DNA from: Acidimicrobiia bacterium
GTDB lineage: Bacteria > Actinomycetota > Acidimicrobiia > Spongiisociales > ZC4RG35
Assembly: GCA_965215185.1 (NCBI GenBank)
Contig: OZ244034.1
Coordinates: 2,592,001 to 2,656,000 of the forward strand
DNA length: 64,000 bases
Reading direction: 5' to 3'
Shown here: positions 59,558 to 62,772 of the stretch, one piece after another
Layout of the letters: every line of letters starts with the position of its first letter
Position numbering within the stretch: position 1 is the first letter of the stretch
Position numbers and translations under genes: made by a program
Notes under the pieces: generated by a model
The model's database searches: none
Told to the model about the DNA's origin: nothing
What the model saw: only the letters and a program-made list of their open reading frames with translations

Positions 59558-60769
59558 CTACAACGTGCTACCAATCGAGCTGTCTGTCCCAATCGGTGCC
59601 ATGAAAAGGATTGAGGCTTCGCGGATGTTTAGGTAGCGGCTCCAGTTTTCCATCAGTTGGCGGCGTCTTTCCAGTAGGTCGGTTCGAGCGTAGGCTTTTT
59701 CTACAGCGTTTCGGATTTCGTGACCGAGGGCCCGTTCCGCGACTTCACGGCTAACACCGGTTTCTCCGCACCAGTCCCGAAACGAGCTTCTCATCCCGTG
59801 TGGCACACAACCCACATTGTTCTCTTTGCACAGTTTGCTCATAGTGGCGTTACTAGGCGGCCGTCCGGTAGGCGAGGGAAAAACCAGGCCATCCCCGCCG
59901 GACAGTTGGTGTGCGGTGTGGAGAACCGCCAGAGCCCCGCTGCTCAAAGGCACCCGGTGTATTTGCTGTGTTTTGGTGTGCTCGGCAGGGATTGTCCAGG
60001 TTGCTGTGGTGAGATCAATTTCTGTCCATGTGGCGTGTCTGACTTCACCGCTTCTGGTGGCGGTAAGGGTCAGGAATTTGAAAGCGGCGATCGTCGCCCA
60101 ATGGGCATCTGTTGTTTCGACGGTTCGAATGGCTGCGCCGACCTGGCTGTGGGGTAGGGCCTTCATGTGTTGGGGTCGTTGGGTGTTGGAACCTAGGGCG
60201 GCGGTGATACGGTCGTCGGCTGGGTTGTTCTCTCGGAACCCCTGGGCGATGCACCATTTCATCACCGCGGCGATCCGCTGTTTCACCCGGCGGGCCGTTT
60301 CGGGTTTTGGGTGCCATATGGGGGTGAGACAAGCCATGACGTTGGCGGTCGTGATTAGGTCCACCCGCCTTTTCCCAAGGTGAGGATAGGCATAGGTGTG
60401 GAGGGTTGACCGCCAGTGCTCTTCGGACCTGCCACCCGGTTTCCACTTGGCGGCGTGAAGCCGGATTACCTGTTCGGTCGCCTGGCGAAAGGTAGGTGCC
60501 TTGCGGGGGCGGGGGTTGCGGCCTTCTGCGATGGCTTGTCGGTTCCGGAGAGCCCGCCGGCGGGCTTCGGCGAGGGTGACTGCCGGGTAGCTACCCAGCC
60601 CCAGGTTGGTGTATCTGCCGTTGATCTGGTTTCGTTGCGCCCAGGTTTTGGAGAGTCGCCCCTGGATGTTGGTTGGTTTGACCAACAGGCTCAGTCCATG
60701 GCCGCCTCGGCCGTTGCCATAGCGTCCGGGTTGGGTCACTGTCCTAACGAAAGATGCTGTGAGTGTTGG
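59558..60769 (-). CDS. P4-like tyrosine integrase, interrupted after codon 4 by IS110 (first codons at 62040-62051)
   Basis: N-terminal arm-binding region (GLSLLV...LG.YP.VTLAEAR); catalytic R(SGE), K, HGMR, LGH, Y all present. Confidence 0.9.
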   Translation of the reverse strand, partial: PTLTASFVRTVTQPGRYGNGRGGHGLSLLVKPTNIQGRLSKTWAQRNQINGRYTNLGLGSYPAVTLAEARRRALRNRQAIAEGRNPRPRKAPTFRQATEQVIRLHAAKWKPGGRSEEHWRSTLHTYAYPHLGKRRVDLITTANVMACLTPIWHPKPETARRVKQRIAAVMKWCIAQGFRENNPADDRITAALGSNTQRPQHMKALPHSQVGAAIRTVETTDAHWATIAAFKFLTLTATRSGEVRHATWTEIDLTTATWTIPAEHTKTQQIHRVPLSSGALAVLHTAHQLSGGDGLVFPSPTGRPPSNATMSKLCKENNVGCVPHGMRSSFRDWCGETGVSREVAERALGHEIRNAVEKAYARTDLLERRRQLMENWSRYLNIREASILFMAPIGTDSSIGSTL

Positions 60770-60776
60770 TGAGCTC

Positions 60777-61805
60777 CTATGTCAAAATCGGGGTTGGTTT
60801 TGGTGGTTGGAGGTGGGTCCAGATGCGGTCTGAGATTCGGCGTTTGAGGACGCGTATGGCGTCTCTGTGGGTCTTTCCTCGGGTGATGAGTTTCTGGTAG
60901 TAGCGGCGGCCTTCGCTGTCTGCGCGGGCGATCTGGGTCAAAGCGGCGGTGTGGATGGCCCGGTTTAGTTGGCGGTTCCCACCCCGGTTGAGTCGATGGC
61001 GTACTACTCGTCCGCTGCTGGCTTCGATGGGTGCGGTGCCGTTGGCCATGGCGAACTTGTCTTTGGTCGCATAGCGGTGTGGGTTGCCCACCTCCGAAAG
61101 GATGGTGGCAGCGACCAGTACACCCACCCCGTGAATGTCTAGTAGACGGGTTTCGGATTGGTCGACCAGTGTTTTGATCTCGGCGGTGAGTTGTTTGATC
61201 TCGGTGTCCAGTTGTCGCAGTCTTCGGATGCGTTGTTTGGCTACCCGCCCGTGGGGGGTGGTGTCCCGCCAACACAGTTTCATGGCCTGGTCGAGGGCTT
61301 TTCGGGTGGTGAGCCGGGGAATGTTCTGGTGGTAGCCTGGTCGGAGTTTCCCCAGGTCGGCGTGGAGCCGGTTGGCCTGGGCGGTGCGGTCTTCTACCAG
61401 TTCACGGCGGTATGAGACCAGCACACGGAGGTCTTCGGTGTCCTCCCAAAACGTCGGCGGGGCGAGCGTGTTGTCTCGGAGAGCGACCCTGGCGATCACC
61501 CAAGCGTCGACCTGGTCGGTTTTGGTCTGGGTACGGCCCCGGCGCCGGACCTGGGCGGTCAGCTGCGGTGGAACCTCCCGGATGTCCAGACCAGCGGCCA
61601 TAGCGGCGACCGCGGCTGGGCGGCCGAACGTGCCGGACCCCTCGACCGCTACCCTGGCGGCGTTGGTGGTGTGAGCCCAATCTATGAGTTGACGGTGACC
61701 AGTAGGGGTGTTAGCGATGGTCCGGTACTCCAGGGCGGTGCCCAGGTGGTCTACCAAACAGGCAGAAAGGGTATCCTTGTGCGAGTCGATCCCGATAACG
61801 AACAT
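60777..61805 (-). CDS. IS110-family DEDD recombinase/transposase
   Basis: GID, VEG, KTDQVD (DEDD), ASSG catalytic serine, GGNRQL. Confidence 0.95.
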   Translation of the reverse strand: MFVIGIDSHKDTLSACLVDHLGTALEYRTIANTPTGHRQLIDWAHTTNAARVAVEGSGTFGRPAAVAAMAAGLDIREVPPQLTAQVRRRGRTQTKTDQVDAWVIARVALRDNTLAPPTFWEDTEDLRVLVSYRRELVEDRTAQANRLHADLGKLRPGYHQNIPRLTTRKALDQAMKLCWRDTTPHGRVAKQRIRRLRQLDTEIKQLTAEIKTLVDQSETRLLDIHGVGVLVAATILSEVGNPHRYATKDKFAMANGTAPIEASSGRVVRHRLNRGGNRQLNRAIHTAALTQIARADSEGRRYYQKLITRGKTHRDAIRVLKRRISDRIWTHLQPPKPTPILT

Positions 61806-61848
61806 GGTTCAATCCTCCAATTTCGGGGGTTTGCGGGAGCGGCAGAAG

Positions 61849-62017
61849 GCTCGGCGAAGCGCATCCATGCGTCGAAACAACACCCCCACAGGGGGCAGAT
61901 ACAAGTCACGCTCCTATCAAGCGACAACACCGAGCGGGCAACCGGTGGGGAGACACTCACTAACTAAGCCACCACAATGGGGCAGGGTCGTTTGGAGTCA
62001 TCCCCACCGGCACTGCC
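61849..62017 (-). ncRNA. Predicted IS110 bridge RNA
   Basis: Two stem-enclosed internal loops (ccggtgggga/tccccaccgg; gctcgg/ccgagc) containing matches to target and donor sequences. Confidence 0.8.
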
Positions 62018-62159
62018 ACACCCCAACATATAACACGCATGGTCGTTTCACCCCTGCTTCTCCCTTTCGGCTAACCCAGAGAAGGTCCGGTACCGCCGAT
62101 TACTCCGATGGGTTACTTCGATAGTTATCAACATTGCAATGCGATTAGGTGCAACCCTA

Positions 62160-62250
62160 TGGGACTGTCTGGAACTACCTGGGACACCAATACCCCGTTG
62201 ACCTGGGCAAATATGAACCACATGGGACACTATGCGCCTATATAGGACAC
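62160..62250. repeat. Phased short direct repeats at the island end (candidate integrase/Xis binding sites)
   Basis: tgggact 62160, tggaact 62170, tgggacac 62180, tgggacac 62223, taggacac 62243. Confidence 0.55.
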
Positions 62251-62262
62251 TAAACCCGCGGA

Positions 62263-62772
62263 CGTCCAGGTAAGGCAACCCTTCCTGCCAGAAGTTCTCG
62301 TTGCGTACGATTTCAACCTGCTGGTTGCGTTCCCATTCCACGAACTTGAAGGGACCGGTTCCGATCGGCGTCTCGTTCAGGTCGATGTCGGGATCCCGCG
62401 GCGAGATGTACACATCCACCAGGGTGCTGGCCAGGATGCGGTCGGGCTCGCCGAGTCGGATCTCCACGGTCATGTCATCGACCGCTACGGTCCCGACTAC
62501 CCGGGTCAGGAGAGAAGATGTCCGTCCAGACTCAGGCTCCTGCGCCCTGCCCATGGATACCACCACGTCTTCGGCGCCAAAGGGAGAACCGTCGTGGAAG
62601 GTCACGCCTTCCCGGAGGTTAAAGGTCCAGGTGGTGGCCAGCGAGGGAGACGGTCCAGGTGGTGGCCAGCGAGGGAACTATCTCATAGGTCTCCAGGTCG
62701 AACTCCACCAGGGTGTCATACATGTTGGTGATGATGTTGCGGTCGTTAGTCGAACCGAATCGGTTGGGATGC
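62263..62772 (-). pseudogene. Family-5 SBP, N-terminal half (signal peptide missing, internal frameshift)
   Basis: MYDTLV...PSLA..W...F.LREGVTFHDG...GTGPFK...GLPYLD. Confidence 0.85.
62624..62676. repeat. 25-bp direct repeat with 28-bp period
   Basis: ggtccaggtggtggccagcgaggga at 62624 and 62652. Confidence 0.9.

Follow-up and report, generated by a model that had tools for sequence, protein, structure and literature searches.

What does the non-coding end of an insertion sequence do, and can the choice of its insertion site be read from it? This question is raised by an element near one end of a 64,000-nucleotide stretch of Acidimicrobiia DNA (hereafter, the window; positions count from its first letter), part of a genome, G000, of 3.12 Mb in one contig. 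Bridge RNAs have been established for the IS110-group element IS621 (Durrant et al. 2024, PMC11208160; Hiraizumi et al. 2024, PMC11208158), and the first of these accounts reports their prediction for 85.7% of the IS110-group elements in ISfinder and for thousands of orthologues. The original prediction for this locus, made from the letters of the window, held that the element encodes such an RNA on the minus strand and that all four of its guides match the insertion that it occupies.

The window element is an IS110-group insertion sequence of 1268 bp (62039..60772, minus strand), delimited by comparison of filled and empty paralogous sites (Table 1). The empty site (G000:C1:~896975, also given as ~896969) reads ...GAGACGAC-CA-CCAACACT... 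with one CA only, whereas the filled sites read flank-CA-IS-CA-flank, which fixes both the bounds and a 2-bp CA core that flanks the insertion and occurs once in the empty site, as is usual for the group. The CA core put forward in the original prediction is thus borne out, and relatives with a CG core compensate for the change in both right guides (see below). The non-coding left end is ~234-235 nt long (62039-61806, minus strand), the right end stops 5 nt past the stop codon and long terminal inverted repeats are lacking, in agreement with the end architecture (long left, short right) by which PMC11208160 describes the IS110 group. The open reading frame of the element matches the Pfam families DEDD_Tnp_IS110 (PF01548; 6.2e-31) and Transposase_20 (PF02371; 1.8e-20), both above the cut-offs, and its best solved relatives are the IS621 transposase (8wt6_A; E = 9e-20, with an alignment confined to two stretches) and, in second place, the ISCro4 transposase (PDB 9t56; E = 3.2e-17), a member of the same recombinase family that was compared by protein sequence alone. 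Residues D7, E55, D97, D100 and S264-G265 align with D11, E60, D102, D105 and S241-G242, the catalytic residues named for IS621 (PMC11208158). The protein accordingly has the DEDD RuvC-like domain and the Tnp domain with an aligned catalytic serine that mark the IS110 group, and the reading frame is intact with all catalytic residues kept.

Table 1. Features of the window element and of the flanking host DNA, with the evidence for each
Feature	Position	Strand	Evidence or remark
Whole insertion sequence	60772..62039	-	TGCGTG... start, ...ATAGGAGCT end; filled/empty site comparison
Left CA core copy	62040..62041	-	single CA in empty site vs CA-IS-CA in filled site
Right CA core copy	60770..60771	-	filled/empty site comparison
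Recombinase gene, 342 aa, DEDD/RuvC-like and Tnp domains	60777..61805	-	Pfam and structure-chain matches
Left target AAACGAC, host DNA	62042..62048	-	identical to first 7 nt of left target guide
Right target CCAAC, host DNA	60765..60769	-	4/5 vs right target guide complement CTAAC; L003 has CTAAC, 5/5
Predicted bridge RNA body, ~190 nt, with predicted start and end	61835..62024	-	fold, constrained fold, alignment pair counts; RNA-library contig over 3' two thirds
Target-loop closing stem, 5' strand	62001..62010	-	pairs with 61942-61951; 99.1% of cells paired, 16 sequences
Left target guide (LTG), 9 nt, AAACGACCC	61985..61993	-	same sense as left flank; covaries, 21 rows
Right target guide (RTG), 10 loop positions	61958..61967	-	matching part is the 3' 7 nt GUUAGUG; covaries, 16 rows
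Putative target-loop handshake guide AG	61956..61957	-	complementary to CT, donor positions 6-7; placed by analogy to IS621 (PMC11208158)
Donor-loop closing stem, 5' strand	61928..61935	-	pairs with 61849-61856; fold; helix 83.9% paired in alignment, some compensatory changes
Left donor guide (LDG), AUAGGAGC then G then UG	61907..61917	-	8/8 identity to right end
Donor-loop capping hairpin, then U-rich tract	61881..61897	-	scores terminator-like
Right donor guide (RDG), ACGCAUG	61866..61872	-	complementary to core and left end CATGCGT, 7/7
Putative donor-loop handshake guide GA	61864..61865	-	first base pairs with target position 7
TTGACA, -35 half of candidate junction promoter	60780..60785	-	right end, overlaps stop codon; by analogy to IS621
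TATATG, -10-like half of candidate junction promoter	62027..62032	-	AT-rich block at same left-end positions, 16/16 aligned relatives

All four predicted guide matches were found at their places on the minus strand. Within the target loop, AAACGACC (61993-61986) recurs at 62048-62041, and GTTAGTG (61964-61958) has the complement CACTAAC, against the CACCAAC that is present at the core and right flank (60771-60765), an agreement of 6/7 that rises to 7/7 at one of the other copies (L003, see below); the second core-binding base of the LTG, a C, is unable to pair with the core. Within the donor loop, ATAGGAGC (61917-61910) recurs at 60780-60773, and ACGCATG (61872-61866) is complementary to CATGCGT (62041-62035) over 7/7 positions. 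At one locus alone, the 8-mer matches are suggestive rather than conclusive, because each 8-mer is expected about one to two times per 64-kb window (4 and 2 occurrences on both strands vs 2.25 and 0.91 expected in shuffles); for a copy in one ~60-nt loop, on the right strand, an arithmetic estimate puts the chance at roughly 1 in 1000 per 8-mer.

To compare many RNAs with their own sites, we assembled relatives from a genome-collection scan and a search of the genus. These are of 58-97% protein identity, come mostly from Acidimicrobiia assemblies and include matches in 10 of the 16 other genomes of the genus. A search of 401 genomes of the class (a sample holding only 3 genus genomes besides the window's own) with the pattern of the target-loop stem matched three and added one new locus, L091, from another bacterial family. 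A metagenome scan yielded 20 loci, among which no new RNA/site pair was found, the left end of this family being present only in L071-L073, which are of the same kind as L030. The resulting table holds 21 distinct combinations of loop sequence and insertion site, with L091 in addition.

Across these rows the guides covary with the flanks of their own copies. Left-target matches number 127, compared to 77.4±5.3 when the sites are shuffled among the RNAs, and right-target matches outside the core number 62/80, compared to 34.1±4.5; in both cases 0/20000 permutations were as high, although the rows are related elements, several sharing one RNA, and these counts overstate independence and are not true probabilities. 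The LTG agrees with its own left flank and core at 9/9 positions in L031, L018 and L023 and at 8/9 in L091, and the RTG at 7/7 in L031 and L091 and at 9/10 in L028. Divergent members (L018, L023, L025, L028, L031, L049, L050, L058 and L091) have quite different flanks, and their loops match these flanks.

The donor side follows the element ends in the same manner. The RDG matches its own left end in 19/21 rows, the exceptions being L049, with one guide mismatch, and L026, with a CT left junction; in elements with a CG core it becomes ACGCACG, and both the RTG and the RDG end in bases that pair with CG, which amounts to compensating changes in two guides. The LDG follows the right-end change from ATAGGAGC to ATAGAAGC, and elements with the right end ATAGAAGCT show the same change in the LDG. 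L026 itself has CT at its left and CA at its right junction, a mixture that would be expected if the target and donor cores differed at insertion.

The original prediction further remarked that the LDG lies 2 nt further from the core than the LTG and that this could reflect a different geometry. The arithmetic is right, in that the LDG 8-mer ends 1 nt before the core and the left-target 8-mer includes the first core base. A new geometry is nevertheless not needed, because the CG-core relatives L028, L029 and L049 have, in the same loop columns, a continuous 11-nt LDG that runs through the core, and the window LDG differs from it by a mismatch and putative core wobbles: donor position 7 (T) is faced by a non-matching G, the ninth base of the guide, and the UG at the guide's end could engage the bottom strand of CA through U·G and G·T wobbles. 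Donor position 7 is reported to tolerate mismatches in the IS621 screens (PMC11208160). The continuous guide agrees with its own right end and core at 11/11 positions in L028 and L049; the right end of L029 was not recovered, the sequence after TTGAC at this locus being unrelated.

In IS621, the two bases 3' of each right guide are described as handshake guides: once strands have been exchanged, they pair with the other DNA at its positions 6-7 (PMC11208158). The corresponding bases of the target loop are AG in 21/21 rows, and the right end reads ...GCT in 16/16 rows in which it was recovered, the last two bases before the core being the donor CT; this pairing is invariant and shows no covariation. 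Of the two donor-loop handshake bases, the first pairs with target position 7 in 21/21 rows (GA-C, UU-A, GC-C) and the second finds a partner in 5/21; L091 has UG with CA.

The two stem-closed loops that the original prediction saw in the non-coding end also emerge from folding and alignment. The fold of 61806-62048 (minus strand) consists of two long closing stems, CCGGUGGGGA/UCCCCACCGG and GCUCGGUG/CGCCGAGC, each with an internal loop capped by a hairpin; its energy is -97.7 kcal/mol (z = -3.15), and 0/200 shuffles fold as well. The closing stems are the robust part, and the unconstrained fold draws some guide bases into weak pairing within the loops. In an alignment of 16 distinct relatives, from which identical or near-identical RNAs (L002, L003, L019, L021, L024 and L064) were left out, the proposed structure pairs 86.1% of cells, compared to 43.7-59.1% when partners are slid by 1-3 columns. 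Structural covariation is modest, with 9 pairs changed on both sides vs 6.9±1.6 in shuffles (80/500 shuffles reach this number): compensatory changes are few because the stems are nearly invariant, and it is mainly conservation that supports the two-loop structure. One compensatory change lies next to the target-loop stem, where the window has GAC/GUC and relatives have GGC/GCC. RNAalifold also paired the start of the left end, TGCGT, with the RDG, a pairing that we rejected as an artefact: the alignment included DNA that probably lies upstream of the transcription start, and the pairing adds nothing beyond the complementarity of guide and donor. A constrained fold was therefore used.

In 11/16 aligned sequences, those of the window's subfamily, a long-range helix (62013-62024/61835-61845, minus strand) encloses both loops; its 5' strand is deleted in the distant members L028, L029, L049 and L050 and largely missing in L031. 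The terminator-like hairpin of the donor loop (61897-61881) could truncate the RNA after the left donor guide, so that it would carry, besides this guide, the target loop only. A scan of 60500-62400 against Rfam 15, at E values up to 10, returned no match to the RNA region and three chance-level matches to unrelated families.

As for transcription, a promoter scan detected no sigma-70-type site in the integrated arrangement. When the right end, core and left end are joined, TTGACA is followed, after 17 nt (8 of the right end, CA and 7 of the left end), by TATATG, and TTGACA is retained in most relatives. By analogy to the junction promoter described for IS621 (PMC11208158, PMC11208160), the bridge RNA probably owes its transcription to a promoter that exists only once the right and left ends are joined in a circle. 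One metatranscriptome run contains a single 188-nt contig that extends, with 3 differences, over the donor loop, the leader and the 3' portion of the target loop, and nothing falls on the reading frame; the contig is a weak hint of transcription of the left end, and its source may be a related copy or DNA contamination. Joints of a circle or joints that skip the element were not seen in the contigs of three DNA runs and the RNA run, contigs being a form of data that cannot show absence.

G000 contains three copies of the element that are 100% identical: the window copy, L002 (C1:~984061-985330) and L003 (C1:~1647194-1648463). The window copy and L002 occupy the same position in paralogous integrase-bearing elements, of which a third close paralogue (C1:~896975) is empty. 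Their flanks are 92.1% (229 nt) and 87.5% (1191 nt) identical, whereas the element is 100% identical over 1270 bp, which suggests, from sequence comparison, two independent insertions at the same site, with gene conversion as a possible alternative source of the identity. L003 lies at an unrelated locus, where the flanks are unlike those of the other copies beyond the guide-specified bases; on the right, the CA and these bases are all that L003 and the window copy have in common. No copy with identical loops was thus found at a site unrelated to its guides, the right half of the L003 target agreeing at 7/7 and the left half at 8/9 positions.

The window copy lies 33 nt upstream of a tyrosine integrase gene (Arm-DNA-bind_3, Phage_int_M and Phage_integrase domains), inside the end of an integrative element (window 59558-62269, minus strand). 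Homology to the paralogous integrative elements ends ~229 nt left of the insertion sequence, and an SBP_bac_5 reading frame (62048-62605) loses its family match at that point; the integrative element therefore appears to interrupt a gene for a solute-binding protein. The third copy (L003 984-1469; G000:C1 1.60-1.67 Mb) adjoins a 161-aa reading frame without a Pfam match, the DNA of which recurs more than 15 times within ~70 kb, and nearby are a small nucleotidyltransferase reading frame (NTP_transf_2/Polbeta) and an Abi_C reading frame, because of which the neighbourhood is possibly a defence or toxin-antitoxin island.

The target predicted from the guides, built from the window's loop coordinates, was scanned over the genome in two registers. 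With 7 left bases (14 nt), the intact sites comprise 0 perfect matches, 1 with one mismatch and 11 with two mismatches; with 8 left bases (15 nt), the corresponding numbers are 0, 0 and 1. The three occupied sites have one mismatch each and a single other intact site is as good, which means that the element has taken three of the genome's four best sites. Five paralogous sites lie upstream of integrase genes (G000:C1 ~21461, ~896969, ~984061 and ~2504924, and window 60765-62048): the element is present at the two that have one mismatch and absent from the three that have two.

The need for two registers comes from the left half-site. The LTG lies in the same loop columns in all members; in 15/21 rows it fits 8 flank bases and the first core base (8+1), and in 6/21 rows, namely the window/L002 site, L025, L028, L029, L031 and L049, it fits 7 flank bases and both core bases (7+2), as it does in L091. 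The window RNA, with an LTG that ends in CCC, is found with both: the window/L002 site agrees at 8/9 positions in the 7+2 and 4/9 in the 8+1 register, and the L003 site at 8/9 in the 8+1 and 4/9 in the 7+2 register. The right flank of L003 has CA and exactly the five bases specified by the RTG, 7/7 with the core. A three-base core (CCA/TCA) was considered as the cause of the difference and rejected, because both right guides follow a 2-nt CA/CG next to TGCGT and L026 has CT at the same position.

Taken together, these observations make it very probable that the window holds an intact, recently active IS110-group element that works like IS621 by means of a bridge RNA. If the left end were instead a mere leader or promoter region, with the protein picking the target, the likeness between loops and flanks would be due to chance or to shared ancestry of the sites. 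Such an account fits the mostly invariant stems with their weak structural covariation and the similar targets (AAAnGAAC-CA-CTACC) of many related copies, owing to which part of the covariation signal is phylogenetic; yet it fails to explain why the loops of the nine divergent members match their own, differing flanks, why a CG in place of CA at the core goes along with matching changes in two separate guides, why none of the 20000 permutations attains the observed agreement of guides and flanks and why, within 3.1 Mb, the occupied sites make up three of the four that match the guides best, and we give it almost no credence. It also seems very unlikely that the element, while a genuine bridge-RNA element, is no longer mobile and owes its three copies to duplication or gene conversion of host DNA. 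Two of the copies do share a position in paralogous integrative elements, and joints of a circle or an empty site were not seen in the contigs of the sequencing runs; against this stand the complete identity of the element over 1270 bp between flanks that are 87.5-92.1% identical at the paralogous sites, the unrelated flanks of the third copy beyond the guide-specified bases, the intact recombinase gene with all its catalytic residues and the empty third paralogue of the integrase element.

Within the bridge-RNA reading, the two registers invite a further, tentative proposal, namely, that one natural bridge RNA directs insertion at left half-sites that lie 1 nt apart when measured from the cleaved core (AAACGAC-CA in the two window-type insertions and AAATGACC-CA in the third), such that the spacing of duplex and core is not rigid in this subfamily. 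We regard this as a reasonable possibility that falls short of being probable; if the spacing is flexible, the C run at the 3' end of the LTG would allow slippage or a one-base bulge. An assembly error within the run of C, or an indel of 1 bp that arose later at one junction, could produce the same difference between the window/L002 and L003 sites, and it is true that the difference lies in a C run (ACC vs ACCC) that adjoins the core and that the pre-insertion sequence of L003 was not recovered: among 40 relatives, none had a left flank continuing to the junction (0/40), with weak partial matches in 2 genomes. However, contigs of two further short-read runs, which may be the assembly's own source, bridge the left junction of L003 with 0 differences (records 17 and 25; 2749/2753-3313), the window-type site is fixed by the empty paralogue and both registers occur elsewhere in the family (15/21 and 6/21 rows), all of which makes an error or indel unlikely.

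The sequences themselves show the bounds of the element, its core, the placement of the guides, their covariation with the flanks and the occupancy of the genome sites that fit best; the transcript ends, the circular intermediate and the chemistry are proposed by homology and analogy to IS621. On this basis the element would operate as follows. A bridge RNA of ~190 nt would be transcribed from the left end, starting at the promoter (TTGACA-17 nt-TATATG) that is assembled on circularisation. In its target loop, the LTG would pair with the bottom strand and the RTG with the top strand of CA and the right flank; in its donor loop, the LDG with its terminal UG, which matches the right end, and the RDG, which would pair with CA and the left end, would recognise the joined ends. 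The RNA-bound DEDD-plus-serine recombinase would exchange strands at the CA core, after which the handshake nucleotides would pair with positions 6-7 of the other DNA as in IS621, and the circle would be inserted into sites resembling AAACGAC(C)-CA-CTAAC.

The mechanism is already known, and the window element is a further IS621-type bridge-RNA member. The layout of target and donor loops that the original prediction recognised, together with an IS110 recombinase, is supported by the Pfam matches, the aligned DEDD and serine residues and the covariation of guides with flanks and ends. As far as the published descriptions of the E. coli element drawn on here go (PMC11208160, PMC11208158), the likeness extends to the DEDD-plus-serine recombinase, the long left and very short right end, the order of target loop and donor loop, the sense of the guides (left guides in top-strand sense, right guides complementary), the inclusion of the core within the guides, the 2-nt handshake guides 3' of each right guide and a pair of short inverted repeats, ATA...TAT, around the donor. 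Compared with the same descriptions, several traits differ. The core is CA, or CG in some relatives, rather than CT; the RTG matches up to 7-9 nt rather than 4; the RDG pairs without interruption over 7 nt, whereas 9 RNA bases of its IS621 counterpart pair discontiguously with 7; the left guides meet the CA core with CC and UG, neither of which is a Watson-Crick match; and a long-range helix around both loops in the window's subfamily takes the place of a separate 5' stem-loop. The use of the LTG in two registers is not predicted by the simple IS621 model (7+2). The CA and CG cores or the alternative register may already be contained in the supplementary tables of PMC11208160. Elements of the IS1111 group share the recombinase family and likewise recognise target and donor by RNA guidance (PMC11208160), but carry the RNA in a long right end, with subterminal inverted repeats of 7-17 bp, rather than in the left end as here.

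The locus brings together in one genome the whole set of a recombinase, its RNA, the donor ends, an empty site and three identical copies that occupy two kinds of target. It belongs to a small family, so far found mostly in one Acidimicrobiia genus, in which guides, CA and CG cores and handshake bases can be read directly. For engineering, the family offers natural cores other than CT, longer right target guides and a hint at slack in the left guide; should one RNA indeed serve two registers, this would be a natural case of indel-type off-target or alternative-target recognition by bridge recombinases, beside the non-Watson-Crick pairing of both left guides with the core. For the biology of the genome, it presents one mobile element homing to another, namely, an insertion sequence that settles at a conserved site directly upstream of the other element's integrase genes.
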